This document shows positions 9,724-26,766 of a stretch of DNA of 51,662 nucleotides, piece after piece (position 1 is the stretch's first letter; each line of letters opens with the position of its first letter). Where the stretch lies: sequence record SRR20825006_1228; one strand, 5' to 3'. The position numbers were made by a program, and so were the translations under genes. The notes under the pieces were generated by a model. That model had not been told where the DNA came from and made no database searches. It saw nothing but the letters and a program-made list of their open reading frames with translations.

Positions 9724-9742
9724 GTCGAGTGTCCAGAGTTCG

Positions 9743-10924
9743 CTAGTTCAGTTCGCTGCGCGAGTCGCGGGCGGCGGATATTTGTGCTGCGCTGGAAATC
9801 GGATCAACTGTCACACCTGCACGCAGGTTTTGAAGATTTGAAACGGCGACTCTTTCGCCTTCCTCCAAGCCGTCCAGCACAATCCATGAATTGTCGTTGT
9901 ATTGCTCGACCTGGATGGCGCGCTGCTCAATTGTGTTGTCATCTTTGACGACCATGACGGAGGCTTCGCCCGTTGGGGTCCGCGAGACGACCGATTGCGG
10001 CAGCGTAATGACATTTTCGTACATGCCGGCAACGAAGTTTGCGCGGACGAACATGCCCGGCAGGATAATACCATCAGGGTTTGGCACGAGCGCACGTACC
10101 GCTACTGTACCGGCACTTTCGTCGACATTGATTTCGCTGAATTCGAGCTCACCTTGCAGGGGATACGTCGTATCGTCGCTGAGGATGATGTTCACTGGCA
10201 CCGTGTCGATTCCCTTGGAGGCAACCCGCCCGGACGCAATCTGGCGGCGCATGTTGAGGACGCGATTGCTGGAAACGGTAAGGTCCACATAGATCGGATC
10301 GATTTGAAGCACGTTGGCGAGTGTTTCAGTCTGGTTTTGAGTGACGAGCGCGCCTTGTGTGACCGATGATCGACCAATGCGTCCGGCGATGGGGGAAGAA
10401 ATCCTGGTGCGGGCAAGATCGATGCGTGCGCGGTCCAGAGCAGCCTTTTGAAGCGCAATATCCGCTTCTGCTTCCTGGGCCGTAGCCGCGGCCTGATCAT
10501 ATTCCTGCTGGCTGACAGCGTTGATCTTTGCGAGGTCGGCGAACCGTTTGGCGGTTTCCTTTGCGACATTTGCAGAAGCCTGGGCACGCGCCAATGCGGC
10601 CTCGGCACTTCGCACATCTGCGGCATACTCGTCTGCATCAATCTGATAGAGCGCTTGTCCACGCGAGACGAGGTCGCCTTCCTTGAACAGCCGCTCCTTG
10701 ATGATGCCGGTGACCTGCGGGCGGATCTCCGCTTCGGCGTGGGCCCGCGCGCGTCCAGTCAACTCAACGGCGTTGGGGACCGATACGAGTTCGGTCGTGA
10801 GAGTCTTTACAACTGGAGCTGGCTGTTGCGGAACCTCTACTGTACTGCCTTCGTTACCACAGGCCGTCAGCAGGAAGGCGACGGACAAGGTCGCGGCCGA
10901 AATACTTTTTCTTAGAACTTCCAT
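9743..10924 (-). CDS. acrA: RND efflux periplasmic adaptor lipoprotein (AcrA/MexA-like)
   Basis: Lipobox LTAC, AEIRPQVTGII, SPIAGRIGRSSVTQGALV, LPGMFVRA. Confidence 0.92.
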   Translation of the reverse strand: MEVLRKSISAATLSVAFLLTACGNEGSTVEVPQQPAPVVKTLTTELVSVPNAVELTGRARAHAEAEIRPQVTGIIKERLFKEGDLVSRGQALYQIDADEYAADVRSAEAALARAQASANVAKETAKRFADLAKINAVSQQEYDQAAATAQEAEADIALQKAALDRARIDLARTRISSPIAGRIGRSSVTQGALVTQNQTETLANVLQIDPIYVDLTVSSNRVLNMRRQIASGRVASKGIDTVPVNIILSDDTTYPLQGELEFSEINVDESAGTVAVRALVPNPDGIILPGMFVRANFVAGMYENVITLPQSVVSRTPTGEASVMVVKDDNTIEQRAIQVEQYNDNSWIVLDGLEEGERVAVSNLQNLRAGVTVDPISSAAQISAARDSRSELN

Positions 10925-10982: not shown

Positions 10983-11043
10983 TCTAGTGTTGCGGTGCAG
11001 CATGTCAAGGAGAGGGCATAGTGGAATTTAGGTGTTTTTCTGC

Positions 11044-11652
11044 ATGACAGTTATGAGCAAATCGAAGACGGCCGCGAAACGAGAGAGTCGCGTTGCTGAA
11101 ATTCTGGACTGCGCTGAGATTCACTTCGTTGAGAAGGGATTCCATGGCGCGGGCATTTCCGGGATCGCCAAAGAATGTGGCATCAGTGTTGGCCATCTGT
11201 ATCATTACTTTGCGTCCAAGGATTTGTTGATAGAGGCTGTGGTGGAGCGCGAATTGTTGCGCCAAAAAGACAGAATGGAAGACTTCCGTAATCTGAGCGG
11301 CACTGAAATCCGAGATCAAATCGCTCCACTCGTCATCGACATTATTATCAAGCATCAGGACCCGTTCCGAACGGTTTTGAATTTCGAGATTCTTGCCGAG
11401 GCGCAGAGAAATCCGTCGGTTGCCGAGATCTTGCAGAACTATGATCGTGAAATACGGGAAGAGTTTTGTGGCGTCCTGGAGAATGCCGGAATTACAACGC
11501 CTGTTTTGCGGACGGAGATGTTGTTTACCTTGTTTGGCGGCATTCCGGCCCGCACGCTGAGGCATCCCGAGCATGAACGTCCGCAATTCATCGAAATGAT
11601 GAAGCCGATCATCACGAAGATTCTTGCAAGTGATGACCTTCCTGTGGAGTAG
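11044..11652 (+). CDS. TetR/AcrR family transcriptional regulator
   Basis: HTH motif FVEKGFHGAGISGIAKECGISVGHLYHYFASKDLLI; divergent from efflux operon; start could be 11032/11053. Confidence 0.92.
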   Translation: MTVMSKSKTAAKRESRVAEILDCAEIHFVEKGFHGAGISGIAKECGISVGHLYHYFASKDLLIEAVVERELLRQKDRMEDFRNLSGTEIRDQIAPLVIDIIIKHQDPFRTVLNFEILAEAQRNPSVAEILQNYDREIREEFCGVLENAGITTPVLRTEMLFTLFGGIPARTLRHPEHERPQFIEMMKPIITKILASDDLPVE

Positions 11653-11677
11653 AGCGAAACCACAACGATATCGCGGT

Positions 11678-12370
11678 TCATTCTTCCGCATTGATGAATA
11701 TGTCCAAGCTGGCTCTGAGAGTGGAGTTGCTGGAGGCACTCGTACTCGCCAGCTGAACGGCGCGCTTGTCACCGGTTGGGTTCAGCACCGGGAGCTGGAA
11801 TCTTAGCGCCGCATACTTGTCCAAGCTATCGGCATAGGCCGGGTTCCGAGTATAGACGGATCGGGAAACCATCTCGGGAAACAGGATGCTGGACCGTATT
11901 AGTGGCGCCACTCCCAACCCCAGAGTATCCAGGCTGCGATAGACCTCGAAATGGATATGTGGCGGGCGTCCCCGATAAGTGCCTGGGTACACGGTCCGAA
12001 AGTTTACGCGTCCTCGTTGGTCTGTGATCCCTATACCACGTAGATAGTTTGTATCCGGGCGATTGAAGACAGAGTACTCGCCAGCTGCGTCGGCGTGCCA
12101 AACATACACCGCATAACGGGAAAGCGGCTGTTGATCTGTTGATAGAGATTGCAGGCGCAAGTGCAAGTCGAGAGGCGCGCCATCGGCCGCTCCTGACAAG
12201 CCATTGAAACCCCGTGTTATGTCGGTTCGGATGAGACCTGCGCTGGCCCACAGACTTGCCAGGCTGGGGCCAGGCTGGAACACTGGCTCTTTCGGATACG
12301 CTTCGGGCTTGTTGGCCGCTGGCGGGAAAACTGGTGCTCGGACAAGCGCGGAGGATTTCGGGATAGACAC
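11678..12370 (-). CDS. Intradiol ring-cleavage dioxygenase-like protein
   Basis: VYVWHADAAGEYS, YLRGIGITD, VYPGTYRGRPPHIHF give the Tyr/Tyr/His/His iron ligand set; GTG start. Confidence 0.8.
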   Translation of the reverse strand: MSIPKSSALVRAPVFPPAANKPEAYPKEPVFQPGPSLASLWASAGLIRTDITRGFNGLSGAADGAPLDLHLRLQSLSTDQQPLSRYAVYVWHADAAGEYSVFNRPDTNYLRGIGITDQRGRVNFRTVYPGTYRGRPPHIHFEVYRSLDTLGLGVAPLIRSSILFPEMVSRSVYTRNPAYADSLDKYAALRFQLPVLNPTGDKRAVQLASTSASSNSTLRASLDIFINAEE

Positions 12371-12376
12371 CGGAAT

Positions 12377-12916
12377 CTATTGCCGTCGTCCGGGAGGAGG
12401 TCCGCGGCGCTGGCTATCCTGCGGCATGGTGGGTTCGTTGGAATCGACTGCGCGCGGCGCTGTCAGAAATTCTGCGCGTGATAGAAGCCCATCTCGGTTT
12501 TTATCGATCCGACCGAATATATCGATAAGCCGTATTCGGAATTCCGAGGCCGTGATGGTTCCATCCAGATTGCTGTCGAAGGCAATAGGGCTGGGGAGTG
12601 CATTCAGGTCGCCAAGGGTCTCAGCTGCCCAATTTGACATCTGCACCGCAGATTGATGTACCCGATCAGGCCCCGCCAAGGCGCGCCATTCGAGATCAAT
12701 ACCATTATCAACTTCTTCGCGTGATACGAAGTGATCGTGATTACTGTCCATGCTGACGAAAAGCAGTGCCACTGGTGGGGCAGACAGGCCTTGCGACCGA
12801 GTCGGGCGTGCGAGGTCTCCGCCATCGCGACCGCTGGCTCCTGGCCCCTTGCGCGGGGAGGATGTGCATGCGACCACCAAGGACAGTCCAGCAATCATCA
12901 GGACTGTGACTTTCAT
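12377..12916 (-). CDS. EF-hand domain lipoprotein
   Basis: GGAG RBS then MKVTVLMIAGLSLVVAC lipobox; EF-hand loops DSNHDHFVSREE, DSNLDGTITASE, DKNRDGLLSRAE. Confidence 0.85.
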   Translation of the reverse strand: MKVTVLMIAGLSLVVACTSSPRKGPGASGRDGGDLARPTRSQGLSAPPVALLFVSMDSNHDHFVSREEVDNGIDLEWRALAGPDRVHQSAVQMSNWAAETLGDLNALPSPIAFDSNLDGTITASEFRIRLIDIFGRIDKNRDGLLSRAEFLTAPRAVDSNEPTMPQDSQRRGPPPGRRQ

Positions 12917-12955: not shown

Positions 12956-13004
12956 GAGGGAGGTGTCACAGGGTGAGACGTAGGGGGGGTGTGACACCTC
13001 CCTC
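12956..13004. repeat. Perfect 15-bp inverted repeat upstream of the EF-hand gene
   Basis: GAGGGAGGTGTCACA-N19-TGTGACACCTCCCTC. Confidence 0.8.
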
Positions 13005-13461
13005 TCATCGCATCGGTCTTGGCACCCAAAGGGAGGCTCGGTGTTCAAGGAGCGGACGGGGACTGTCCTGGTGGATGCGATGATTTCGGTGATTGAGATC
13101 GAGACTTTCTCTTCAGAGCGACCGGAATAGGGGGTGGAACTAGGCATATTGAGTGCTCTTAATGCAGTCTCTGGGGACGAAGTGCCGGGAAGTTTCCCTG
13201 CGTCGATGAGAACAAGATGCCTCAGCCATGTTGAGAGGATATGCCGGTTAGGACGAAAGTGATGGCAATGTATGGCAGTCTGCAACATGACATTACCGAC
13301 TTGAAAGGTATGGGTTTTCGGTGGCGACACCAGCAATTCGGGATGATCCGGAGCGGTGGGGTTCGAAGCGCAGTTTAACTGCAGTCACGACACACCTTGG
13401 CAACAAGTTTATCCTATTTGTAATCATCAGATCGACGATACATATTCAGGAGACTGCGGAG

Positions 13462-14196
13462 ATGCCTGATCCCGAGACCACGACACCCGAACACATTCTA
13501 GTTATCGATGATGACCGCGATATTCGGGAAGATTTGAAATCCTATCTCACGGAAAACGGCTATCGCGTGTCGACGGCTGAAAATGCACCCGCTGCGCGCC
13601 GGGCGATCCATTCTGAAGAACCAGACCTCATCCTGTTGGACGTCATGATGCCGGGCGAGGACGGGATCAGTCTTTGTCGCTCGATCGTTCGGCTCACCGC
13701 AATTCCGATCGTTTTCATCAGCGCGAGAACTGATGAGATCGACCGGATTGTCGGCTTGGAAGTCGGCGCAGATGATTATGTGTGCAAGCCATTTAACCCG
13801 CGTGAACTGCTTGCACGTGTGCGGTCTGTCCTGCGGCGCGCGAATGGTCGCGAAAGAGAAATGACGCCTGAGAAAACGCGCTATTTTGAGTTTGACCGCT
13901 GGACCCTGGACACGGCGAAACGCACAATGACCCGCGATGATGGCGTGATCGTCTCCTTAAGCACCGGCGAATTCCAATTATTGATGATCTTTATAGCCCG
14001 ACCACAGATCGTGCTGTCGCGTGAACGGATCGTGGAACTGTCTCATGCCGAAGGCGCAGATGTGTTCGACCGCAGTGTCGACAGTCAGGTGAGTCGATTT
14101 CGGAAAAAGGTCGAACGCGACCCCAAGAATCCGGATATCGTCCAGACCGTCTGGGGCGGGGGGTATGTCTTTGCAGCTGATGTGAAGAAACTGTGA
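13462..14196 (+). CDS. OmpR-family response regulator
   Basis: ILVIDDD, LILLDVMMPGEDG, GADDYVCKPFNPREL, winged helix DRSVDSQVSRFRKK...TVWGGGY; AGGAG RBS. Confidence 0.95.
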   Translation: MPDPETTTPEHILVIDDDRDIREDLKSYLTENGYRVSTAENAPAARRAIHSEEPDLILLDVMMPGEDGISLCRSIVRLTAIPIVFISARTDEIDRIVGLEVGADDYVCKPFNPRELLARVRSVLRRANGREREMTPEKTRYFEFDRWTLDTAKRTMTRDDGVIVSLSTGEFQLLMIFIARPQIVLSRERIVELSHAEGADVFDRSVDSQVSRFRKKVERDPKNPDIVQTVWGGGYVFAADVKKL

Positions 14197-15608
14197 TGCT
14201 GGCAAGGCTTGATACGCTTCTTACACGGATTGTAATCCTGGTGACAGCCGCTCTGCTGTCTACATTTCTACTGGCGTATTTCATTGTGGAATTCAGCATT
14301 TCATCGCAACGGCTCCAGCCACGTACGGCGCTGCATGTTGCGACGGTCGCATTGGAGGAATTGCAGGCGAAGGATTGGCCCGATTCACTCTCTGACAAAG
14401 AGCTGGAGCGTCTTCAAATAACCGATTACTCGCTGTCAGAATATCCCTATATTGAGCCTTTCTCCTGGGGGCTAGCCGAACGTGTTCTTGAAAATCTTGG
14501 GCTAGCGCAGGATACGCCGATTGGTATTTCCCTGAGTGGGTGGGGTGATCGGGACAGGCTCGCAGGTCCTCCCGGTCGACCGGACAGGTTCATGGATGAA
14601 GAACCGGGCCGTCCCGGGCCAATGAGTTTGAGGCCTCCGCCGTCAGAGCGTGGGAGATCTGCCAGCCAGCAGCGCGCAAGAGTGTCTCTCGAGATCGCGA
14701 ATGGCAATTGGATAAACATAAGAACCGAGAACATGAGTGTGAAAGAGCCGCGTCCACCTCTCCTGGCGGCCGTCATGCTCATCGTGCTGATGGTTGGCAT
14801 CGGCATATGGGCCGCCCTGAATGCGATTAATCCATTGAGGCAAATGGCGAAGGCCGCGAATACGCTGGCGTCCGACTACAAGCATGAGCCGCTGGTCGAG
14901 CAAGGTCCGTATGACGTGCGCGAATCTCTGCGTGCTTTCAATCGCATGGGCCGTCGCCTCGAGACCACAGTGGCTGGCCAACGCCAGCTGCTCGCAGCAA
15001 TTGGTCATGATTTGCGGACACCCATTACCTCATTGAAACTGAAGGTTGAGATGCTATCAGATGCGAGTGAGCGCGAGCGGATGAGTCGTGCTCTGGCAGA
15101 GTTGGAGCGTATCACAGAAGCCGCACTTGCTGCGGCGACGGCTGGCCAGTCAGATGAGCCTTTCCAGCCGCTGGACATGTATTCGTTGGTCGACAGCCTT
15201 ATCGAAGACTTGCGGGATCTGGGCCTCTCTGTCTCGTTCAATGAAATCGATGTACGCCCGATTGTCATGGGTCGATCAGATGAACTGACACGCGCCTTGC
15301 GCAACTTGATTGAAAACGCGGTGCGTTATGGAGACATGGCGCACGTTTGTCTCAGTGAACAAGCCGGCAAGGCTATTGTGACGATCCAGGACACAGGTCC
15401 GGGAATCCCGGAAGATGCTCTGGAGCGTGTGTTCGAACCCCTTGTTCGATTGGAACAGTCACGCAATCGCGAGACCGGCGGGCATGGGCTCGGACTTCAT
15501 ATCGCGAAGAATCTGATTGAAGCCCATAGTGGGCACATCGATTTGTCGAACCCACCAACCGGGGGGCTGCTCGTAACGGTGACCTTGCCTCTGAAGGCCG
15601 CTGGCTGA
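14193..15608 (+). CDS. Sensor histidine kinase (EnvZ-like, HAMP)
   Basis: Two TMs, HAMP, H-box HDLRTPIT, NLIENAVRYG, DTGPGIP, GHGLGL; GTGA overlap with regulator. Confidence 0.95.
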   Translation: MMLARLDTLLTRIVILVTAALLSTFLLAYFIVEFSISSQRLQPRTALHVATVALEELQAKDWPDSLSDKELERLQITDYSLSEYPYIEPFSWGLAERVLENLGLAQDTPIGISLSGWGDRDRLAGPPGRPDRFMDEEPGRPGPMSLRPPPSERGRSASQQRARVSLEIANGNWINIRTENMSVKEPRPPLLAAVMLIVLMVGIGIWAALNAINPLRQMAKAANTLASDYKHEPLVEQGPYDVRESLRAFNRMGRRLETTVAGQRQLLAAIGHDLRTPITSLKLKVEMLSDASERERMSRALAELERITEAALAAATAGQSDEPFQPLDMYSLVDSLIEDLRDLGLSVSFNEIDVRPIVMGRSDELTRALRNLIENAVRYGDMAHVCLSEQAGKAIVTIQDTGPGIPEDALERVFEPLVRLEQSRNRETGGHGLGLHIAKNLIEAHSGHIDLSNPPTGGLLVTVTLPLKAAG

Positions 15609-15615
15609 CACGCTA

Positions 15616-18213
15616 TCAGAACCGGGTGGAAGTGCTGAAACGGAAGGACTCCGTGCGGTCGTACTCTTCGCTCTTGAGGATATGGCTGAAGTCGAAGCGG
15701 ATTGGGCCGAAAGGGGATGACCAATAGACGCTGAGGCCTGTAGATGCGCGCAAGGACAAGTCATCTTCAATCAACTGGACGGCATCACGGCCAAAAGTAT
15801 CCGTGAACTCGACCGGGTCGCTCTTGTCTATGTCGCTCAACAAGCCAACCGCGCCGGCTTCCAGGAACAGCCCCGTCTTGATGCCGTATTCTTCCGGCAG
15901 ATAGTTTGGCATCGAGATGTCGAGGCTGGATTGGTAGAACGCGTTGCCGCCCAGGGCGTTGAGACGCTTCACTGTTTCTGTGCCGTCATCATTTTGGATG
16001 ATTTGCACAATGCGCGGCCCGAGACCTGCCGTATCAAACCCGCGGAAGCTGTTGCCGCCCTTGAAAAAGCGATTATTGATACGTACGCCTTGAGGAGTGG
16101 TTTGTCCGTATTCGGATTCCGCGTCGCTCGTGCCATAGGGTTCGATGTATCCACCCGAAAGACGCAAACTGGCCGTTATGCCCTTCGCAATACCTTGGTA
16201 GATATTCATCGATGCGTTGGTGCGAATGAAGTTCACGTCCCCGCCCAGGCCAGCAACGTCTTGACCAAACAGCAGGTCGAACCCGCCAGTGGGGTCAATA
16301 GGGTCATTCTTCATGTCCAGGAGGAGATTGTACCCGACGATCGAGGAGATTTCTGATCGTTCACTTGAGCAAAGCGAGTATCTGTTGAGATAGCGCGCAT
16401 CGCATACGTCCACGATCAGCGATCCATCAGGCAATGGTACGTCATCAGCGGTGAGAAAGGCGACACCCACGACATCATCGCTTGTGTCTCCCGGGGTGTC
16501 ATTGTCATCTACAGTGTATTCGGTTGTCAGGCGTTCGCCGCTGTCCGAGGCAATCACGATGCTCTGATCGACGACGTCGATTTTGTCGTTTTGCAACGTA
16601 TATTTCAAGCCAAGTTGCAGCCGGTCTGACAAGGGGAAACCTAGCTGCCCGCTGACACCTACAGATTCAGTCGTATAGCCGCCAAGATCGGTGTCAGAAT
16701 AATCGAGGCGGGTAGCAAACGCACTCACACCTGCGGACATGTCACGGTCTAGGAAACGTGGCTCCGTATACTGCAAGTCCACAATTTGCTGCAGGCTGGA
16801 TGTGGACAGGCGAGCAGACGCGGATTGCCCGCGCCCGAGCACATTGCGCTGTGCCACGCTGACATCTACGAGGAAAGATTCTGAGGATGAGAAGCCAGCT
16901 GAGAAACTCATCTCGCCAGTGGGCTGCTCAGTGACTTTTACATTCACGTCAATTTGGTCAGGGTCCGCGGTGGGAACCTCAGTAACTTCGACGTCTTTGA
17001 AGTAGCCAAGGGCCCGTGCGCGGTTGCGCGAGCGATCCAGCAAGATGCGGTTGAAGGCATCACCTTCAGTCACGCGCAATTCCCGCCGGATCACGCGATC
17101 GAGCGTTTGGGTATTACCGACAATATTGATGCGGTTGATGTAAACACGCGGACCTTCATTGACATGAAAGGTCACGTTGATCGTATGCGTTTCGAGATCG
17201 GCGGAGATTTCAGGGCGCACATCAATAAAGGCATAACCTCCGATCCCGGCGACATAGGTCAGGCCATCAATTGAGTTTTCAATTGTGTCGCCTCGGAACA
17301 GGTCACCGGATCGCGCTACCAGTGACGCTTTCAAGGCGTCCGTGTTGAGTTTTTCCAGCTCGGTTTCGACATTGATCTCGCCGAAGCGATAAATCTCGCC
17401 CTCGTCGATTGTATAGGTAATGTAGAAATCCTTCTGATCAGGCGTTAGTTCTGCCACGGCTGACTCTACGCGGAAGTCGTAATACCCCTTGTTCTGGTAA
17501 AACTGACGAAGCAATTCGCGGTCATATTCCAAGCGACCTGGGTCATAATTGTCGTTTGATGAGAAGAACTGCCACCAACGTGATTGACGGGTGACAATCT
17601 CCGACCGAAGACGGTCGTCTGAATACGTTTCATTTCCCAGGAAGTTGATCGCTCGTACACCAGACACAGGTCCCTCTGTAATCGAGAAGACCACATCCAC
17701 ACGGTTCTGATCGAGCGGCAAATATTCGGGCGTGACTTTCGCCGCGAACCGGCCGGATTGGCGGTAGAGTTCCATCACGCGCTGTACGTCTGCCTGCACG
17801 CGAGCGGCGGTGAATACGCCGCGCGGCGATATCTGGATTTCTTCGCGGATCTTTTCTTCCCCGAGCGATTTGCTGCCTTCAATCATGACCCGATTTACAA
17901 TTGGGTTTTCGACCAATGTAATGATGAGCTGGTTCCCGACCCGGTCAAAATTTGCATCAGCAAAGAGGCCGGTTGCGAAGAGGGATTTGAGGGACAGGTC
18001 GATACGGTTCGCGTCAAAAGGTGAGCTAGGTTCGACTAGAAGGTAGGACATCACGGTTCGGTCTTCGATCCGCTGGTTGCCATTGATAATGATGGCTTCG
18101 ATGTTTCCTGTGCTGTCTTCTGCGCCCACCTGCGCAAGCGCCGTCGGTTGCAGCGAAGCGGCGAGCGCAGAGAGGATCAGGGAGAGCGCGAGTGTTTTGT
18201 TTTTGTGGCTCAT
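15616..18213 (-). CDS. bamA: Outer membrane protein assembly factor BamA (probable second, out-of-locus paralogue)
   Basis: Signal peptide, five POTRA repeats (GNQRIE..., GNTQTLDRVIRRE), loop-6 FRGF motif, SPFGPIRFD, C-terminal FRFSTSTRF. Confidence 0.92.
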   Translation of the reverse strand: MSHKNKTLALSLILSALAASLQPTALAQVGAEDSTGNIEAIIINGNQRIEDRTVMSYLLVEPSSPFDANRIDLSLKSLFATGLFADANFDRVGNQLIITLVENPIVNRVMIEGSKSLGEEKIREEIQISPRGVFTAARVQADVQRVMELYRQSGRFAAKVTPEYLPLDQNRVDVVFSITEGPVSGVRAINFLGNETYSDDRLRSEIVTRQSRWWQFFSSNDNYDPGRLEYDRELLRQFYQNKGYYDFRVESAVAELTPDQKDFYITYTIDEGEIYRFGEINVETELEKLNTDALKASLVARSGDLFRGDTIENSIDGLTYVAGIGGYAFIDVRPEISADLETHTINVTFHVNEGPRVYINRINIVGNTQTLDRVIRRELRVTEGDAFNRILLDRSRNRARALGYFKDVEVTEVPTADPDQIDVNVKVTEQPTGEMSFSAGFSSSESFLVDVSVAQRNVLGRGQSASARLSTSSLQQIVDLQYTEPRFLDRDMSAGVSAFATRLDYSDTDLGGYTTESVGVSGQLGFPLSDRLQLGLKYTLQNDKIDVVDQSIVIASDSGERLTTEYTVDDNDTPGDTSDDVVGVAFLTADDVPLPDGSLIVDVCDARYLNRYSLCSSERSEISSIVGYNLLLDMKNDPIDPTGGFDLLFGQDVAGLGGDVNFIRTNASMNIYQGIAKGITASLRLSGGYIEPYGTSDAESEYGQTTPQGVRINNRFFKGGNSFRGFDTAGLGPRIVQIIQNDDGTETVKRLNALGGNAFYQSSLDISMPNYLPEEYGIKTGLFLEAGAVGLLSDIDKSDPVEFTDTFGRDAVQLIEDDLSLRASTGLSVYWSSPFGPIRFDFSHILKSEEYDRTESFRFSTSTRF

Positions 18214-18252
18214 GAAGTCGGCATCCAGAAGAGAGAAATGGTGTCTGAGAGA

Positions 18253-21200
18253 TCAGAAGCGGAGTTTGACGGCGGCGTTGGCCGTCAGGGCGGTTGCGTC
18301 GGTTGAAAACTCACCATCCACGCCAAACCGAATTTTCAGGAGTTCGGACCCCGCCAGTAGCGAGAGTCCCACCGTGGCGGCATCTTCAAACACCTCGGTG
18401 GCGCTGAGTGTAAAACTGTCCTCATAGCCGACAAATCCAGCGTCGACTTCGTAAGGTGTCGAAGACAACGTGGAGCGATAGCCAATATCCAATCCAGCCC
18501 GAACCATGGGACGGTAGCGATTGGAGTTGTTGTAACTGGTATAGGCCGGACCCGTGCGAGACGAGTCTGCGCCTTCCCGCCAGACATAGGCAAAGCCGAG
18601 TCCGGCATCAGCGGTTACACGGTCTGTGCTGGCGTCGCTGACCCATAGGTTCAATCCGTTTGATGCCGTTTCTGAATATCCGTCCTGATCAAGTTTGAAG
18701 TAGTCCAGACCAATTGATGGCGTCATCCTGAACGCCCCGGACCCGAATTCGGTTGATGCCAGGAGTGAAGCCGCGGTGGTCATCCCGTCCCATGTGCCGC
18801 TGACCTCTGAGACATACTCGTCGAACTCGATTTCTCTATAGCTGGAATGGTCGACCTTCGCGATCTGGCCAACGGCCTGAAGGTTTACGCGCCCGATCTG
18901 CTCCGTCGCATACACCCCGACACCCAGACTTTTCATGGTCACAGGATTTTCGCCGCCAGTTTTTTCCTCAAACTTGCCGTCGCTCATCGTACCCATGATG
19001 CCGATTGCATCTATGCCTAGCAGCGAGCGATCATACCCCAGAGCGATGCCAAGGCCGCGGCCGTCATATCCCGGCCCATCGTCAGACCCATCATAGCTGA
19101 CATGGGAATAGGTTTCCTGCACCCATGCACCATTTCCGGATTCACTGGAGCTACGGGTGAACTCCAGATGGCTTCTCAACGCGCCAAAAGCGGCATTCCA
19201 CTGGGATTCCAGATAGCGCGTTGCGGCATCAGTGCGCTGAGGCAGCAGCAAATTGTAGGCCTCTAGAAAGTCATGTTCGGTCGAAAGCTGCGTGATGGCA
19301 GATCCGACATCATCGTCACTTGTGGCAACATTGAGTATAGCGGAGAGGGCGCGGGACTGGTTCGTGTCGAGACTGAGTTCCTCGGCAGTCTTGAGGCGAA
19401 AGTCGAGATTGAGTTTGTCTGTATCAGACGTCTCTGTCTCCAGTGATACGTTGTATATCCACGGTATATTTTCGGTCGATAACTCAGCGGTTTCCTCGTC
19501 GTATATCAGTGTACCCGCTTCGATCAATGTGACGGCAAAATCACCGTCGATGAATGACGTAAGTGTTGGGCGTACCAGAGTATCGCTGCCCAGTGCTGCG
19601 GTTCCCGAAACCGACAGAAAGGCTGTGGTCCGCAGGTTCTGAGGATCAATTTCGAATTCAAGTGTTGAACCATCCGTGACGGAGAGGGAGGCAAGCTGCA
19701 AGGACGTTTCTTCAAGCAGAACAATTTCAGAATCTGAAATTGTCGCGGCCAGTCTGTAAGCATCGCTCGTCAGATTACCCGTGAGCAACGTTGAAGACAG
19801 GAAGTCGATCGTTCCACCCGCAGAGCCGAAGTCGAAATCTCCCTCGATCTCACTCTCCTCGATATACAGGCTGAGTGTATCGCCCTCGAAATAGGTGTCT
19901 CCCAGAAACTCGGCATCCGATAGGTCGAAAGTTGCGGCGCCGGCACCAAAGTAGATGTCGCCTGCCAGACCCCCGTCCAGAATTTGCAGTATGTCATCGC
20001 CGGTTCCGAACCGGACGTCGCCATAGATTGTAGGTTCGGTCACATCGTCTTCATCGATTTCGTCATCGCTGTTCACATCTTCAGTGGGAGTTTCCTGGTA
20101 CTGGATAATGGTTGCGCCAGCCGTTTGTGCGGACAGGTCAATGGCGATGGACGATCCTGTTTCCGAATCTTCCCGTCCGTCTGAAATGAGTAGGCCTGAA
20201 ATCGCGCCGGTATTGGTTATGTATCTTAGCGTATCACTTTCATCGGTGATCGCCGTTGCTGCGCCACCATAGCCATTTGATGAAGCGGTGATGGATCCAC
20301 TATTCAGGATCGCTTCCAGCGTACTTCCATTGGAAATGAACAACGCTTTGGCGGTGTCGTCCGTTAACGTATAGGTCGTTGCGGCGATGGATCCGGAGTT
20401 TTCGAGAGTGCCGATTGCTGTGCCGTTGCCGAGCAGAAGGCCTACGGCGGAAGCCTCGTAGGCGGTTCCTTGAATTGTGCCGGAATTCAGGATGCCGCCA
20501 TCAATTGTAACCGTTCCGGTTCCGTCTTCTGATCCGGATATGGAGAGCGCCGTCGCATCGAATCCGATATTCACGCCACTAGCATAAATCGTCCCACGAT
20601 TGATGAGGCCCTGATCAAAAGAAAACGTGGCGAGTACTTCATCTACGTCATCGTCATCATCATCATCGGTGGTATCGCGAACGGTTTCTACGACGCTCGA
20701 GAAGACTACGTTTTCGCCAGCGTTGGCTTCGATGGCGAGCGCCGGGGCTGAACCATAACTGTAGATTCTTCCAGCAGTTCGATTCTCATCGAAATCGTCG
20801 ATCGTATCCTTTGTTTCGTCATCCTCATCCTCTTCGGATGTGAAGTCGTCGACCGCGCCATTGATCAACAAGCCTTGTCCGAGACTGCCCGTGATGCGGA
20901 CGCCGTTCGCATTGTCGTAAAGGTCGTCGGCATCGCGGCGATCCTCCACCGCTTCAGTATCGTCATCGATATAGACAGGCGCGATATAGTTGGAAGAACT
21001 GGTGCTGGTGAAGCCGGTCGAGCTGATTGAACTCTCAATCGTCACATTGCCGGAGACATCCCCATCAATCGTGACAGCTGACGCATTCTCACCCTGAACC
21101 GTAATGGCGCCGCTGATCAATACATCACTGGCGACGTCATCTTCGAGGCTCAGACCCAGGGCGTTGTCGCCGATAACCGAAATTGTGCCCTGTTGCGTGT

Positions 21201-21792
21201 AATCGCCATCGAGCGCGGATCCGATGCGTACACCCGCTGAATCATTGCCTTCTATGTATAGCGTGGAGCCATGATCGAGCAGGATATTACCTGTGATCGT
21301 GCCACCATTCTCGACGTCGATGCCCACGCGGTTCGTCCCGATGGCGAGTGGCCCGTCCACATCGTCATCATCGTCTTCGTCTTCCCGGTCATAGTCTTCC
21401 GACAATTCGATGGAACCCGTGTGGGTGATGCCTGTCGTCGTACCCGTTCGGACAGCAATAGCGGTGACGTAGTCGGTGTCTTCTGCGAGAATTTCGCCAT
21501 CATTGGTGATGGTATTGTCGGAGTCGACCGTAATCGCGGTGGTACCTGGCAGGTCGCTGAGATCAATTTCCCCATCTTCAGTGATTGTAATGTCGTCGGG
21601 CTGTCCGTCATTCGCGGTGGAGGTCTCGACGGGAGCGACGGTGGATTCCTCGATTTCGACGGCCCCTGCAGGGAGGGCCGTAGCCATACCCAGAACAATA
21701 ATCAGTCCACGTGCAACCACCTCAGGAGCGGATGCCTGTGGACCGGAAGCGTGCATCCTTAAATGATTGTTATTTAATGAAAAAATGTTCAT
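18253..21792 (-). CDS. Autotransporter with very acidic passenger domain
   Basis: Signal peptide ending LPAGA, beta-helix-like TN(D/S)GxI repeats, poly-Asp runs, C-terminal barrel with GAWVQE, LGYDR, and terminal VKLRF; start 21792 (21822/21756 possible). Confidence 0.88.
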   Translation of the reverse strand: MNIFSLNNNHLRMHASGPQASAPEVVARGLIIVLGMATALPAGAVEIEESTVAPVETSTANDGQPDDITITEDGEIDLSDLPGTTAITVDSDNTITNDGEILAEDTDYVTAIAVRTGTTTGITHTGSIELSEDYDREDEDDDDDVDGPLAIGTNRVGIDVENGGTITGNILLDHGSTLYIEGNDSAGVRIGSALDGDYTQQGTISVIGDNALGLSLEDDVASDVLISGAITVQGENASAVTIDGDVSGNVTIESSISSTGFTSTSSSNYIAPVYIDDDTEAVEDRRDADDLYDNANGVRITGSLGQGLLINGAVDDFTSEEDEDDETKDTIDDFDENRTAGRIYSYGSAPALAIEANAGENVVFSSVVETVRDTTDDDDDDDVDEVLATFSFDQGLINRGTIYASGVNIGFDATALSISGSEDGTGTVTIDGGILNSGTIQGTAYEASAVGLLLGNGTAIGTLENSGSIAATTYTLTDDTAKALFISNGSTLEAILNSGSITASSNGYGGAATAITDESDTLRYITNTGAISGLLISDGREDSETGSSIAIDLSAQTAGATIIQYQETPTEDVNSDDEIDEDDVTEPTIYGDVRFGTGDDILQILDGGLAGDIYFGAGAATFDLSDAEFLGDTYFEGDTLSLYIEESEIEGDFDFGSAGGTIDFLSSTLLTGNLTSDAYRLAATISDSEIVLLEETSLQLASLSVTDGSTLEFEIDPQNLRTTAFLSVSGTAALGSDTLVRPTLTSFIDGDFAVTLIEAGTLIYDEETAELSTENIPWIYNVSLETETSDTDKLNLDFRLKTAEELSLDTNQSRALSAILNVATSDDDVGSAITQLSTEHDFLEAYNLLLPQRTDAATRYLESQWNAAFGALRSHLEFTRSSSESGNGAWVQETYSHVSYDGSDDGPGYDGRGLGIALGYDRSLLGIDAIGIMGTMSDGKFEEKTGGENPVTMKSLGVGVYATEQIGRVNLQAVGQIAKVDHSSYREIEFDEYVSEVSGTWDGMTTAASLLASTEFGSGAFRMTPSIGLDYFKLDQDGYSETASNGLNLWVSDASTDRVTADAGLGFAYVWREGADSSRTGPAYTSYNNSNRYRPMVRAGLDIGYRSTLSSTPYEVDAGFVGYEDSFTLSATEVFEDAATVGLSLLAGSELLKIRFGVDGEFSTDATALTANAAVKLRF

Positions 21793-22112
21793 GTTGGCGC
21801 GCTCCAGATCGTCCTGTCCCAATGCGTTACGGGAGCGTCTTGTCTGAACTTTGCCGAAATGTGCGGCTTGTCAGCGAGAGTGTGTCAGCCTGACATAATT
21901 GGCGGGACATTGCTGTCGTCTTCCGCTTTCAGGATTCATGCGCAAGCAAATGATCTGCAACATTCTGGTGACAAAGCTGTGGTGAAGGAGCGGGCTTGAG
22001 CCGGGTTTGCTGGAAAGTGCAATAAAATGCCGGTCTTCGCGACGGAATTTGAAACTTGGGTCGTTTAACCCGGGAACATGTTCACAGCCAGAATTGCTGG
22101 AAAGAGACAAGA

Positions 22113-23414
22113 ATGAGAGTTTTTGGGAAACGATCCCGCTGGATCATCGCGATTATTGTCGTATTGGCAGCAGGCGGTGCCGTATGGTTTGCGAAGTCAA
22201 ACTTGGCGAACTCCACAACGCCGACTTATGAAACATCAGCCGCACGCACGGGTGATATTGAAGTTACGATCTCGGCAGCAGGTACTCTTGCGCCAAAGGA
22301 GATGGTTGAGGTTGGCGCACAGGTCTCGGGTCAATTGGAAGAGTTGTTCGTTGATGTCGGCGACGAGGTCGAGAAGGGCCAACTCCTTGCGCAGATCGAT
22401 GCCACGATTGCACAGAACACGGTCGAAGCCCAACAAGCTCAGTTAAACTCGCTATATGCCTCGAAACGTCAACAGGCGGCTTCTCTGAAACTTGCAAGGG
22501 CCGAGTCTGAACGCGCCAATATGCTGTTTGAGGCCGATGCCATTGCGCGCGCTGACTATGAGGCCACGGTATCGGAATTGGAGATCGCGGAAGGGAAGCT
22601 CGACGCTATCAATGCGCAGATCGCGCAGCAGACCTCCAGCCTCCGTGCCGATGAAGCCAATCTGGAATTTACAAAGATTTACGCTCCGATGGCTGGTACA
22701 GTCGTCTCGCTCAGTGCATCCGAGGGCCAGACCCTCAATGCGAACCAGACCGCACCCGTCATCATGACCATTGCGGATCTCGGTATAATGACCGTGGAGG
22801 CCGATGTCTCCGAAGCAGATGTGTTGCGCGTATCAAAGGGGCAGCAAGCCTGGTTCACCACGCTGGGCGATTCTGATCACAAGTGGCAAACCGAAGTTCG
22901 TCAGGTCCTTCCCACGCCTGAAGTTGTCAATGACGTCGTGCTCTACAAGGCGCTGCTCGATATTGAGAACCCCGATGGAATTTTGCGAAGTGATATGACC
23001 GCTCAGGTCTTCTTCATTCTGGGGCAGGCCGAAGATGCCGTCCTGATCCCGGTAACGGCCTTGCAGTCACGTCCCGAGCGCCCAGAGAGCGCACAAGCCA
23101 GGCGTCCTGCGCAACCTGAACGCGGAGCCGCCCAGGGTGATCGTGTTGGCGACGGCAGAGGCCAGGCTATCCGTGAGGCACGCGCGCAATATCCCGACGC
23201 AGAAATGGGTATGGTTCTGAAAATGGATGCGAATGGCGAAGCTGTCCCTCAGCCTGTTTTGGTTGGTCTTCAGACGCGTACAAGTGCCGAAATATTGTTC
23301 GGCTTGTCTGAGGGTGATGAGGTCGTGACCGGGCAAGTGAGCATTCGTTCGAAACAGGCGACCGAGCGTGCCGGAAATGACCGGCCACGCCGTATGGGTC
23401 CACCCCCGGTTTAG
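22113..23414 (+). CDS. macA: MacA-type periplasmic adaptor
   Basis: N-terminal TM, VEVGAQVSGQL, IYAPMAGTVV, GQTLNANQTAP, VSEADV. Confidence 0.9.
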   Translation: MRVFGKRSRWIIAIIVVLAAGGAVWFAKSNLANSTTPTYETSAARTGDIEVTISAAGTLAPKEMVEVGAQVSGQLEELFVDVGDEVEKGQLLAQIDATIAQNTVEAQQAQLNSLYASKRQQAASLKLARAESERANMLFEADAIARADYEATVSELEIAEGKLDAINAQIAQQTSSLRADEANLEFTKIYAPMAGTVVSLSASEGQTLNANQTAPVIMTIADLGIMTVEADVSEADVLRVSKGQQAWFTTLGDSDHKWQTEVRQVLPTPEVVNDVVLYKALLDIENPDGILRSDMTAQVFFILGQAEDAVLIPVTALQSRPERPESAQARRPAQPERGAAQGDRVGDGRGQAIREARAQYPDAEMGMVLKMDANGEAVPQPVLVGLQTRTSAEILFGLSEGDEVVTGQVSIRSKQATERAGNDRPRRMGPPPV

Positions 23415-23425
23415 GACGCCAGATC

Positions 23426-25363
23426 ATGTCAGAACCCTTGCTGCATTTGCAGGACATAAAGCGCGTCTACGGACGGGGTGACGCAGAGGTCCGCGCCCTT
23501 GATGGCGTCGACCTGACCATTCGCGAAGGCGAGTTCGTTGCAATTGTCGGACAGTCGGGTTCCGGTAAGTCGACTTTGATGAACTTGCTTGGTTGTCTCG
23601 ACCACCCGACTTCCGGAACCTACCGCATTCATGGGCAGGATGTGTCCGAGATGGACGCCGATGCACTGGCCTCCTTGCGCAGGCGGACATTCGGCTTTGT
23701 GTTTCAGCGCTATAATCTCCTCGCCAATGTCAGCGCATCGGAGAACGTGGAGATACCTGCGGTCTATGCCGGGGTTCGCCAATCGGAACGGAAGGCCCGC
23801 GCACAGGAATTGCTCGGTAGGCTTGGCCTTGGCGGGCGCGAGAAAAGTCGCCCCGGTCAATTGTCCGGGGGACAGCAGCAACGTGTGGCTGTTGCCCGAG
23901 CTCTGATGAATGATGCCGAAGTCATCCTCGCGGATGAGCCGACGGGAGCGCTCGATTCCGGCACGAGTGAAGAACTTCTGGAATTGCTGGAAGAGCTGCA
24001 TCGCTCCGGCCGCACAGTCATCCTGATTACCCATGACCAGGAAGTCGCTGAACGCGCAGACCGCACGATTGAAATTCGCGACGGCAAAATCATTTCCGAT
24101 TCCGGTTCAGTAGAACGGTCTCTGGAGTCGTTTGACCAACGCGCCGTGAAATCCTCCCCCTCCTTCTTTCTTCAGCTTACGGAATCCATCAAGACGGCCT
24201 TCCGGTCATTGCGCGCGAACCTGTTTCGCACCGCACTGACCTTGCTGGGCGTGGTGATCGGCGTTGCGGCGGTGGTCGCAATGCTGGCGGTCGGGCAAGG
24301 TAGCCAGCGCGAGGTTATGGCCCGGTTCGAGGACATGGGTGCGAACCTGCTCTTCGTTCAGCCGGGGGGTGACCGGGGCGCGCGAATGCGCGGTGACGCC
24401 ATTGCAACCCTTTCACTCGAAGATGCTGAGAGATTGGGCGAATTGGACAATGTCCTGGCTGCGGTGCCATCGCGGTCCGGATCTGCAACATTGCGGCGAG
24501 GAAGCAATGACCATCGTGGCTCCGTGGAAGGTGTTTCGGAAGACTGGTTGCTCGCCAATACCCGCAATATTGAATACGGCTCTTTCTTCACGGCAGAAGA
24601 TGTCGACCGACGCGTAGGTGTGGTTGTGCTGGGCACAACGACCGCGGGGGAATTGTTCGACAATATCTCGGAAGCCGTCGGCGAGTATGTCTTTCTTGCG
24701 GGCGCACCATTTGAGGTCGCCGGCGTGCTTGAAGAAGAAGGCGCCAGCTCGTTCGGCCGTGACCAGGATGATATCGCGCTTATTCCCATCACAACCGGGA
24801 TGATGCGCGTGTTCGGCAGTTCCTACCTGTCGAGTATAACCATCGCTGTGGAAGACACGGACGTAATCTCGACGACGGAGACTGAAGCAAACGAGCTGCT
24901 GCTTCAACGACACGGAACACAGGATTTTCGGATACGGAATACGGCATCGATCCTGGAGTCCGTTCAGGAGACACAGAATTCGTTCTCGATCCTGCTAGGC
25001 GCGGTTGCCTCTATCTCATTGCTCGTCGGCGGTATCGGTGTAATGAACATCATGCTTGTCAGCGTATCAGAACGTACGCGCGAGATCGGTGTGCGCATGG
25101 CAACGGGGGCGCGTCGGTCTGATATTCTTGTCCAATTCATTGTGGAGGCCGTCGTGGTCTGCGCGCTGGGCGGTGTGATCGGTATTCTTACGGGCTTCGC
25201 GATCTGTGCAATTCTCGCCAATCTCGGCACCAGCATCGCCGTAACGCCCATGCCCGCGATCCTCGCCTTTTCAACAGCTTTCCTGACCGGGTTCGTGTTC
25301 GGCTTCCTGCCGGCGCGCAATGCCTCGCGGCTTGATCCGGTCCGGGCCCTTGCGGCGGAGTAA
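23426..25363 (+). CDS. macB: MacB ABC ATPase-permease fusion
   Basis: GQSGSGKSTLMN, LSGGQQQRV, ADEPTGALD, GIGVMNIMLVSVSERTREIG. Confidence 0.93.
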   Translation: MSEPLLHLQDIKRVYGRGDAEVRALDGVDLTIREGEFVAIVGQSGSGKSTLMNLLGCLDHPTSGTYRIHGQDVSEMDADALASLRRRTFGFVFQRYNLLANVSASENVEIPAVYAGVRQSERKARAQELLGRLGLGGREKSRPGQLSGGQQQRVAVARALMNDAEVILADEPTGALDSGTSEELLELLEELHRSGRTVILITHDQEVAERADRTIEIRDGKIISDSGSVERSLESFDQRAVKSSPSFFLQLTESIKTAFRSLRANLFRTALTLLGVVIGVAAVVAMLAVGQGSQREVMARFEDMGANLLFVQPGGDRGARMRGDAIATLSLEDAERLGELDNVLAAVPSRSGSATLRRGSNDHRGSVEGVSEDWLLANTRNIEYGSFFTAEDVDRRVGVVVLGTTTAGELFDNISEAVGEYVFLAGAPFEVAGVLEEEGASSFGRDQDDIALIPITTGMMRVFGSSYLSSITIAVEDTDVISTTETEANELLLQRHGTQDFRIRNTASILESVQETQNSFSILLGAVASISLLVGGIGVMNIMLVSVSERTREIGVRMATGARRSDILVQFIVEAVVVCALGGVIGILTGFAICAILANLGTSIAVTPMPAILAFSTAFLTGFVFGFLPARNASRLDPVRALAAE

Positions 25364-25365
25364 TC

Positions 25366-26766
25366 ATGACCAGAATTCCTCTTCTTCCTCTCAGTCTGCT
25401 TGTCGTCCTTGCAGGATGTACCGCAACGCAATCGTCCGATACGCCTTTGTCCTCGGTTGAGCTTCCGGCGTCCTATGAAACCTCAATGCAAGCGGAAACA
25501 GAATTGCCGGCCACAGGGCTCTGGTGGTCAACCTTCGGCGATGAATCCTTGAACGCATTGGTCAGCACCGCACTCACGCGGAACAAGTCGCTTGAAGCTG
25601 GACTTGCCAATGTTACCTCCGCACGCGCTGCGTTGCGTGTTGCCGATTCCAGCGCCTTGCCATCTGTTTCAGCAGGGGCGTCAGTTTCCACCGACAGTGA
25701 TTCCGACTTCAGTGATTTTTCTCGCAGTGCCCGCCTGTCGGCTAGCTATCAGCTGGATCTGTTTGGCAGTGTTGCAGCGTCACGTGATGCGGCAGGGGCC
25801 AATCTCGAATCGGCTGAGTTCGCGCAAAGAGCGCTTGAGCTGAGTGTTACATCTGATCTGGCAGCGAACTATTTTGACCTTCAGGTCGCGCGTAAGCAGT
25901 TTGAAGTCGCGCAAGACAATCTGGAAATTGCCGAGCGTATCTTTGAAATCGTGCGGGTAAGGTACGATGCGGGCGAGATTTCCGGATTTGATTTTGCCAG
26001 CCAGGAAGCTGCATTGGCCAATTCGCGTGCGCAACTCCCGCAGATCGAGCAGCAGATACTCTCTCTGCGGACGGCGATTGCGATCCTTATAGGGCAGGTG
26101 CCGCAAAATTTCGAAGTGCCGGACGTAGACCTTTACGAGACTGGCTTGCCAGTACCGGAAGCAGGCCTACCATCTCAGCTTCTGGTGCGGCGCCCGGACT
26201 TGTTGCAGGCCGAGGCTGATTTGCGGGCGGCGCAGGCCAATGTTCAGATTGCGAGAGCAGCCATGCTGCCAAGTGTCGATCTTGGCGCGGGTGTGACGAC
26301 ACTCCTGACCTCTATGTCTGATCCGACCGCCAGTCTTTCGGCGTCCCTTGCGCAGACTGTGTTTTCTGGGGGAGCGCTGGAGGCTCAGCTCGACAGTGCC
26401 AAAGCGCGAAGGGAGGCGTTGCTGTCGAATTATGAGCAGGCCATTCTCAGCGCGTTACGCGATGTTGATGTTGCGCTGTCTGCCATCAATACCAGCGCCC
26501 AACGTGAAGAACAGCTCCAGATTGCACTCGTTGCCAGTCGCCGCGCACTGGATTCCGCTGAACTGCGATATCGTGTCGGCACGGACGATTTGACGAGTCT
26601 CTTGTCTGCACAACAGAACTATTATTCTGCAACGCAAAGTGCCCTCGAGGCGCGTCGGGACCGGTTGGCTGCGGCCATTGATCTCTACGTCGCAGTGGGA
26701 GGCGGGTTCTCACCCCGTCAGCGCCAGCTGAATTTGGCCGGGCGCTTTGCGAGGAAGGCCCTGTAA
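25366..26766 (+). CDS. Efflux outer membrane factor lipoprotein (TolC/NodT family)
   Basis: Lipobox LAGC, SYQLDLFG, LLVRRPDLLQAE, LYVAVGGG; 3' end overlaps the next gene. Confidence 0.9.
   Translation: MTRIPLLPLSLLVVLAGCTATQSSDTPLSSVELPASYETSMQAETELPATGLWWSTFGDESLNALVSTALTRNKSLEAGLANVTSARAALRVADSSALPSVSAGASVSTDSDSDFSDFSRSARLSASYQLDLFGSVAASRDAAGANLESAEFAQRALELSVTSDLAANYFDLQVARKQFEVAQDNLEIAERIFEIVRVRYDAGEISGFDFASQEAALANSRAQLPQIEQQILSLRTAIAILIGQVPQNFEVPDVDLYETGLPVPEAGLPSQLLVRRPDLLQAEADLRAAQANVQIARAAMLPSVDLGAGVTTLLTSMSDPTASLSASLAQTVFSGGALEAQLDSAKARREALLSNYEQAILSALRDVDVALSAINTSAQREEQLQIALVASRRALDSAELRYRVGTDDLTSLLSAQQNYYSATQSALEARRDRLAAAIDLYVAVGGGFSPRQRQLNLAGRFARKAL

Follow-up and report, generated by a model that had tools for sequence, protein, structure and literature searches.

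The analysis of a 51,662-nucleotide stretch of sequence record SRR20825006_1228 (the window, throughout) reveals a complete second BamA, here termed BamA2, whose gene follows that of an acidic classical autotransporter (AT) and converges with the genes of an OmpR/EnvZ-type two-component system. With a little more than even confidence, we consider BamA2 to be a conditionally expressed BamA isoform that is co-regulated with the AT and helps its assembly, preferentially and not necessarily exclusively. The gene would be part of an accessory envelope module specific to this lineage (Hyphomonas and other Hyphomonadaceae), composed of the two-component system, BamA2 and the acidic AT, with an EF-hand lipoprotein at some of the loci. 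BamA2 would be derived from the family's own bamA, would work with the cell's single set of lipoproteins of the β-barrel assembly machinery (BAM) and would have its expression tied to that of the AT, through one AT-bamA2 operon in the window and through a position after the sensor genes at loci of the other type. BamA2 is probably switched on by the sensor system and may then supply extra or better-suited insertase capacity during AT production. The data demonstrate the paralogy, the linkage, the co-diversification, the purifying selection and the single BamD; co-transcription, control by the two-component system and the client relation are inferences. BamA paralogues themselves are already known; what is new is the firm genetic coupling of one to a candidate client and to a cognate sensor.

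BamA2 is a full-length BamA encoded outside the housekeeping locus

The 865-residue BamA2 open reading frame (ORF) matches the Pfam POTRA model in five stretches (219 bits) and Omp85 (PF01103) over residues 457-865 (195.6 bits). On the NCBIfam BamA equivalog model TIGR03303 it scores 709.7 bits against a cut-off of 297.15, and the canonical copy of the nearest genome (G001) scores 707.7 bits, whereas the TamA model NF047950 gives 85.8 bits against a cut-off of 625. The FRGF motif (F723-R724-G725-F726) is invariant in a 43-sequence BamA alignment, for which, as for the structure model, 43 of the 52 tree sequences served as input. The AlphaFold (AF2) model, with a mean predicted local distance difference test score (pLDDT) of 78.9, predicts five beta-alpha-alpha-beta-beta units N-terminal to residue 432, and its strand assignment yields 16 putative barrel strands. 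When this model was compared with known structures by Foldseek, the matches listed, 50 in number, were all BamA chains, aligned over approximately 700-930 columns. These observations are further strengthened by 48 distinct PDB sequences that match at E <= 1e-20, nearly all of them named BamA and the remainder named yaeT or 'Surface antigen (D15)' or representing a BamA-BamB chimera. By its predicted architecture, BamA2 would retain everything required for BAM activity.

The surroundings of BamA2 are not those of a housekeeping bamA, in that rseP does not precede it and skp and lpxD do not follow; the window ORFs that were scanned include no rseP, skp, lpx (including lpxD), fabZ or cdsA. The nearest genome, G001, has 36% of sampled words in common with the window and carries the pair at 98% (BamA2) and 97% (AT) identity. 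Its canonical bamA lies inside the cluster rpsB-tsf-pyrH-frr-uppS-cdsA-dxr-rseP-bamA-skp(OmpH)-lpxD-lpxA-lpxI-lpxB, and in all 10 further two-copy genomes the copy away from the AT is likewise flanked by RseP and Skp (11/11 including G001). Judging from these relatives, the window's own genome presumably has a canonical bamA as well. G001 also encodes a separate, shorter Omp85 protein of about 620 residues, taken as TamA-like from its length only. The closest relatives among the named related records are Hyphomonas (e.g., L070 at 98% and L073 at 89%). An earlier note on this DNA, made from its letters alone, had described a five-POTRA BamA with intact FRGF motif, beginning 39 bp behind an acidic AT on the same strand, lying away from rseP, skp, lpxD, fabZ and cdsA and additional to a housekeeping copy in a member of the Hyphomonadaceae. 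This description holds in each respect, the additional copy being, for the window's genome, an extrapolation from relatives.

The partner of BamA2 shows the features of a type Va autotransporter. Its longest ORF spans 18253..21822(-), with a probable start at ATG 21792, which is residue 11 of this frame and also the first residue of the Atlas record. The protein has a hydrophobic N-terminal segment, a β-domain (PF03797, 104.8 bits) and the C-terminus ...AVKLRF with an aromatic last residue, and the passenger contains 19.2% D+E, a net charge of -142 and several poly-Asp/Glu runs. The passenger is probably beta-helical, a lead taken only from its Atlas neighbours (BigA pectate-lyase-like, pertactin and the AC_1 autochaperone domain). 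The AT stop codon occupies 18253-18255 and the BamA2 ATG 18213-18211; a scan of 15300-22300 placed no terminator-like hairpin in the 39-bp spacer between them and returned 6 sites overall against 5.0 +/- 2.6 expected.

BamA2 is rare and recurs within one family

The presence of two full BamAs was investigated at four taxonomic depths. In the genus Hyphomonas, two were found in 18 of 80 genomes and at least one in 72/80. The family sample of 151 genomes contained 11 BamA2 holders, namely 9/28 Hyphomonas, G056 (genus g4) and G017 (genus g16); multiple BLAST matches in genera g5, g8, g9 and g17 were pieces of one gene in the 5 genomes checked by hidden Markov model. Across the order, two full BamAs occurred in 4 of 121 genomes, all in the Hyphomonadaceae, and the five other families had a single BamA in 96/96 genomes. 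In the class sample (401 genomes at least 95% complete, with only the two best BamA candidates scored per genome), two full copies were found in 2/401, G001 and an unrelated 8-Mb genome, G662. These counts include unpublished genomes, G185 in the order sample and G326 and G483 in the class sample. Altogether, 21 BamA2 loci were available, from 18 Hyphomonas genomes, two genomes of other Hyphomonadaceae genera and the window.

G662, which belongs to another alphaproteobacterial family, has its extra full-length BamA away from the rseP-lpxD locus (L117 9484-12207) and independently of those described here, and no homologue of the module's AT or two-component system was detected near it by tblastn.

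BamA2 is invariably linked to the autotransporter and to a response regulator

An AT lies within 10 kb of BamA2 at 21/21 loci, with no BamA2 found without one (0/21), and a homologue of the window's response regulator (RR), 50-100% identical to it, is also present at 21/21. A histidine kinase (HK) was found by tblastn at 17/21 loci; none was detected with the window kinase query at the G254 and G286 loci. Because the juxtaposition of AT and BamA recurs at every BamA2 locus, it is not due to chance, and the pair pointed out in the earlier note is thus a conserved one. In a survey of 28 Hyphomonas genomes for both genes, the 9 with the AT are the same 9 that have BamA2. The earlier note missed two further members of the module, namely the EF-hand lipoprotein and a conserved two-component system of OmpR/EnvZ type.

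Two main gene orders were identified. In the first, tandem order (10 loci including the window), AT precedes bamA2 with gaps of approximately 39-134 bp, and the two are convergent with RR-HK. In the second, divergent order (9 Hyphomonas loci), the AT stands opposite an RR-HK-bamA2 series, 3.4-5.1 kb apart. Variant orders occur in G056, with AT and BamA2 1.1 kb apart, and in G017, with 9.2 kb between them. Homologues of the EF-hand lipoprotein belong to the module at 7/10 tandem-type loci and at the G056 and G017 loci. They also stand beside BamA2-less ATs in G048, G062 and G119, and an adjacent two-component system is present at two BamA2-less AT loci. AT homologues were found in 49/151 family genomes. 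That BamA2 never occurs without the AT while the AT often occurs without BamA2 suggests the recruitment of bamA2 into an older AT module, with or without the sensor and with or without the EF-hand lipoprotein.

Several loci depart from these patterns in detail. The AT at the G286 locus is a 69-residue N-terminal piece at a contig edge, and that of G254 (L123 3089-6413) is split into two frames meeting near 4885; this genome is fragmented (approximately 520 contigs, 92% completeness), and the split is either a frameshift or an assembly error. In a tandem-type subclade, at G147 (L013 5772-6476) and G278 (L121 12466-13170), the RR abuts bamA2 directly with no kinase between them, and the upstream box and palindrome described below are still present. 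Between the window and the nearest genome (window 13321-15608 against L009), the RR is 96-100% identical but the kinase only 78%.

BamA2 and the autotransporter have diversified in parallel under purifying selection

In full-length and barrel-only trees, BamA2 nests within the BamAs of the Hyphomonadaceae themselves. It forms two clades: clade A, the tandem type, with support of 100 and a long stem, and clade B, with support of 98. The clades are unjoined in both trees and a single clade is not rejected (approximately unbiased test, AU p = 0.53), so that both a single and a double origin of BamA2 would be compatible with the trees. G038 was left out, its contig ending inside the gene. The AT tree likewise divides the BamA2-linked ATs into two clades, supported at 100 and 98, in agreement with the BamA2 clades and with the two gene orders; BamA2-less ATs are the sister of clade B. 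Because the AT tree gives the same two clades, AT and BamA2 are best described as having travelled together. The spread of clade B across three genera implies transfer or differential loss.

This co-diversification is accompanied by constraint. The ratio of nonsynonymous to synonymous divergence (dN/dS) of BamA2 is 0.01-0.07, with dS saturated, which indicates purifying selection. Within the same genome pairs, its dN exceeds the canonical copy's by a factor of 1.3-2.4. By these substitution rates BamA2 is functional and evolving somewhat faster than the canonical copy. The frames of all 21 BamA2 copies are open, at divergences down to 55% identity. A redundant duplicate, hitch-hiking on a mobile or variable AT island without a role of its own, would agree with the patchy spread (18/80 Hyphomonas and single genomes of two other genera) and with a slightly lower G+C content over 16-22 kb (0.533-0.545, against 0.558 and 0.566 in the flanking 2-kb bins). 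The open frames and low dN/dS across such deep divergences, together with retention of the gene across two gene orders and three genera, speak to the contrary, and we consider redundancy very improbable.

The BamA2 of G017 is a mosaic (L019 15812-18358 compared with the resident BamA, L039 472-3015), with POTRA domains 90-96% identical to those of the resident BamA at the protein level (76-85% at the DNA level) and a barrel with no more than 50-69% identity. The two paralogues may thus have recombined in their periplasmic half, and the pattern further suggests that this half may be interchangeable while the barrel is kept distinct. The grouping of the G017 canonical copy with its own BamA2 in the full-length tree was rejected as an artefact of the mosaic POTRA domains, since it disappears in the barrel-only tree.

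Candidate regulatory elements precede bamA2

A direct repeat upstream of the AT start, GGCAAAGTTCAGACAA, has its sole match in the 51.6-kb window at this site and recurs upstream of AT-BamA2 at 10/10 tandem loci. A similar box (GGCAAA-N5-GNCA[A/G]) lies at most about 200 nt upstream of bamA2 at 8/9 divergent-type Hyphomonas loci, in some of which it is also found upstream of the RR gene; no box was found at the G056 and G017 loci. A candidate box thus stands upstream of the bamA2-containing transcription unit at 18/21 loci. Once redundant sequence is removed, 6 occurrences of the strict pattern remain, compared with 1.7 +/- 1.6 in shuffles; its definition was post hoc, and the nine later loci that served as a check are kin. 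We regard it as a candidate OmpR-type box whose common denominator is bamA2.

The perfect palindrome TGTCAGNCTGACA, a candidate operator, has one exact match in the window and 8 matches with at most two mismatches (1.9 +/- 1.4 expected). It is present in exact form upstream of the AT at all tandem-type loci examined and at none of the divergent-type and BamA2-less loci examined, and was consequently rejected as a module-wide element. A sigma-70-like promoter scan was uninformative (6 sites against 4.8 expected).

The position of the box bears on a second explanation, in which BamA2 is a sensor-induced isoform with different surface loops that sustains outer-membrane protein (OMP) assembly while the housekeeping BamA is under stress or inhibition or under attack from phage, bacteriocins or contact-dependent toxins, as a BamK-like stand-in, the AT being a mere co-member of the regulon and no special client. 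At divergent-type loci bamA2 comes immediately after RR-HK, with the candidate box placed before bamA2 and not before the AT, and the cognate RR is present at every locus. BamA2 is 62% identical to BamA and most divergent in extracellular loops L4 and L7, a pattern like that of BamK as published (PMC13059784), and the G017 mosaic places the retained difference in the barrel and surface. Holders checked for BamD have a single gene, and a published account (PMC6240691) considers Pseudomonas bamA2 in connection with bacteriocins directed at L6. The two-component system and the EF-hand lipoprotein make a sensor-switched isoform an equally natural reading of the module, and this explanation is a serious rival. 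It leaves unexplained, however, that BamA2 was found away from this AT family at 0/21 loci, that the AT and BamA2 trees mirror one another and that bamA2 lies within the apparent AT operon at 10 loci; moreover, the divergence of the loops does not exceed that between orthologous BamAs of neighbouring genera. Overall, we rate it as possible, though on the unlikely side.

Divergence of BamA2 and the question of client specificity

By comparing BamA2 of the window with the canonical BamA of G001 (62% identity overall), we identified an uneven distribution of change. Identity is 63% in POTRA1, 68% in POTRA2, 86% in POTRA3, 61% in POTRA4 and 78% in POTRA5, so that POTRA3 and POTRA5 are the best conserved of these domains. 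Barrel strands are 61% identical and extracellular loops 37%, with the greatest divergence (26-32% identity) in L4 and L7, whereas the seam strands are nearly unchanged (beta1 82%, beta16 100%). Measured against an inter-genus orthologue baseline, POTRA1-2 fall below and POTRA3 and POTRA5 above. Clade A carries 17 specific replacements at otherwise conserved positions. POTRA2 accounts for 6 of them, and clade B strictly shares none; sharing between the clades is partial, as with L174V and R459L. Under the strict test, a shared diagnostic set of substitutions for both clades was therefore rejected.

These data, together with the linkage, bear on the claim of the earlier note that this is a type V secretion variant with a private insertase. 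In the strict form of that reading, which would resemble TpsB-TpsA, BamA2 would serve the linked AT only and the AT would be beyond the housekeeping BamA. The linkage is absolute and asymmetric, the arrangement is operon-like, AT and BamA2 co-diversify, and the concentration of clade-A replacements in POTRA2 and the departures of POTRA1-2 (below) and of POTRA3 and POTRA5 (above) from the baseline point the same way. Set against this, close AT homologues function in one-BamA genomes, the seam strands and the β-signal of the AT are ordinary, and BamA2, with all five POTRA domains of the housekeeping form, qualifies by score as a BamA equivalog. Nor does it have private BAM lipoproteins, a single BamD gene having been found in each of the 5 holders checked (5/5). 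Acidity as the reason for a private BamA was also rejected, as BamA2-less ATs are equally acidic (passenger D+E of 14.7-19.0% in the g3, g4 and g8 genomes sampled, compared with 13.7-20.3% in linked ATs). We consider strict privacy improbable. The earlier note had left the alternatives 'specialised for' and 'co-induced with' one difficult client side by side; the co-induced half fits the 21/21 pairing and the co-diversification well, and the private insertase, as it was stated, is not supported.

The preferred reading, a co-regulated isoform with the AT as preferential client, must itself be weighed against several observations. AT homologues of similar acidity but without BamA2 were found in 38 of the 49 AT-bearing family genomes, and this AT type therefore has no intrinsic need of a second BamA. 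The C-terminal signal of the AT looks ordinary and alike in BamA2-linked and unlinked ATs, and no signature of altered client recognition was found in BamA2, whose seam strands are conserved. Under the strict test, no residue conserved in canonical BamA is changed in both BamA2 clades, and the overall divergence profile of BamA2, with identities of 37-43% in the loops and 53-70% in the strands, approximates what is seen for an orthologue in a different genus. The 21 loci come from kin genomes and represent only a few independent events. At divergent-type loci the box sits before bamA2 and the RR gene, and none was found ahead of the AT. Evidence of expression is weak as well. Four marine RNA libraries yielded short contigs of low, even depth over every gene of 13000-23500, on both strands, and these may reflect DNA carry-over, with no single transcript seen. 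One 278-nt contig spans the AT/bamA2 junction (18028-18305) without mismatch, a weak hint only; transcription being inseparable from DNA carry-over, the RNA contigs were not counted as operon evidence.

A bolder version of client specialisation may also be formulated, in which BamA2 would be a client-dedicated BAM core within a self-contained, switchable type V unit with its own Omp85 protein and envelope sensor, its specificity residing in the barrel and POTRA1-2, and with calcium as cue or cofactor. The role of calcium is hinted at by the EF-hand lipoprotein and the poly-acidic passenger, and its connection to these and to the periplasmic-sensing kinase is speculation. We hold this extended version to be quite doubtful.

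Relation to known BamA paralogues and Omp85 systems

Of the systems described so far, BamK of Klebsiella is the closest parallel. According to its published description, BamK shares approximately 63% identity with BamA, can take its place, associates with the BAM lipoproteins and is induced by the two-component system BaeSR; the same account calls its physiological role a mystery, states that it is undescribed outside its clade and treats it as a core gene (PMC13059784). As far as that description allows comparison, BamA2 is likewise a full-length, five-POTRA, lineage-specific duplicate, approximately 62-63% identical to the resident BamA, is associated with an OmpR-family two-component system and presumably shares the BAM lipoproteins, holders having one BamD. 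In origin and identity it agrees with what is expected of BamK-like conditional paralogues, a functional class and not an orthologous family, as lineage-specific duplicates about 60-65% identical to the resident BamA; control by the two-component system would be a further shared feature, for which the cognate RR and the candidate box are candidates. The differences are that BamA2 arose independently, being nested in the Hyphomonadaceae BamAs (BamK was set beside it by its published description), that its two-component system is encoded in the module itself, that it is physically coupled to one autotransporter (in an apparent operon at 10 loci) and that it is accessory (18/80 genus genomes), whereas bamK is described as a core gene.

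Pseudomonas bamA2 and the myxobacterial BamA paralogues, for which Heinz and Lithgow (2014) proposed alternative regulation or substrate specialisation (PMC4104836), resemble BamA2 as extra copies outside the conserved bamA locus. The Pseudomonas copies are reported there as very similar, recent duplicates, and in the passages considered here no linked autotransporter or sensor system is described, unlike the situation of BamA2. TamA is also an Omp85-family protein implicated in autotransporter assembly, but it has three POTRA domains and a TamB partner, whereas BamA2 has five and scores below the TamA cut-off. In two-partner secretion (TpsB/FhaC with TpsA), too, an Omp85-family gene lies beside that of the secreted client; TpsB, however, has two POTRA domains and a separate, barrel-less passenger, whereas the present pair consists of a bona fide five-POTRA BamA and a classical AT with its own β-domain, which places it outside the TpsB class. 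Full-text literature searches, as far as their listings show, brought up no BamA paralogue linked to an autotransporter and no report of one from the Hyphomonadaceae.

The published accounts leave open why a second BamA is retained by some bacteria (PMC13059784, PMC4104836). The module described here names a candidate client (the AT), a candidate regulator (the adjacent two-component system with its candidate binding box) and natural controls, in the form of congeners without the module and relatives with the AT but without BamA2. It thereby makes the regulation and specialisation hypotheses directly separable in a non-pathogenic marine bacterium. Such a system bears on the limits of BAM specialisation and is relevant to autotransporter display technology and to BamA-targeting antibiotics.

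Module components and neighbouring genes

The features discussed above and their neighbours are collected in Table 1.

Table 1. Positions and descriptions of the module genes, candidate elements and adjacent operons in the window
Feature	Position	Strand	Description
BamA2	15616..18213	(-)	complete accessory BamA paralogue: five POTRA, 16-strand barrel (predicted), FRGF motif in L6
AT	18253..21792	(-)	acidic classical (type Va) autotransporter: signal peptide, passenger, C-terminal β-domain
AT-BamA2 spacer	18214..18252	(-)	39 bp, without terminator-like hairpin
EF-hand lipoprotein, small	12377..12916	(-)	Pfam EF-hand matches, translation; divergent from regulator
OmpR-family response regulator (RR)	13462..14196	(+)	Pfam Response_reg and Trans_reg_C
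Sensor histidine kinase (HK), EnvZ/CpxA-like	14193..15608	(+)	HisKA and HATPase_c
Direct repeat (GGCAAA-N5-GNCAA)	21840..21855	(-)	candidate response-regulator box, 48 nt upstream of AT start
Perfect palindrome (TGTCAG-C-CTGACA)	21883..21895	(.)	candidate operator
MacA-MacB-outer-membrane factor (OMF) exporter	22056-26766	(+)	divergent from AT
Resistance-nodulation-division (RND) efflux operon, with membrane fusion protein (MFP) and OMF	5171-10924	(-)	left of EF-hand gene

The longest ORF of the RR begins at 13321, and its start is placed at ATG 13462 by inference; its best NCBIfam match is OmpR, at 254.8 bits under a cut-off of 331. The HK matches EnvZ, CpxA, RstB and BaeS, every one of them under the cut-off, and its translation contains two transmembrane segments and a periplasmic loop of about 155 residues. 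Its gene is convergent with that of BamA2, the stop codons being separated by 7 bp. The EF-hand lipoprotein probably starts with MKVTVLMIAGLSLVVAC and contains a lipobox Cys and three DxNxDG-type loops.

Two tripartite exporters, the RND pump and MacA-MacB-OMF, bracket the module. MacAB genes accompany at least five tandem-type loci (G001, G065, G117, G259 and the named record L074) and are present neither at the G147 locus nor at the divergent-type loci examined. Between the RND operon and the EF-hand gene, two overlapping minus-strand ORFs occupy 11005-12370, one with a weak dioxygenase-like Pfam match (37.5 bits) and the other matching no family. Farther along the window, the region 40696-44585 encodes an MdoG-like protein and a glycosyltransferase of family 2, which point to a pair for the synthesis of osmoregulated periplasmic glucans and would be a further envelope function.

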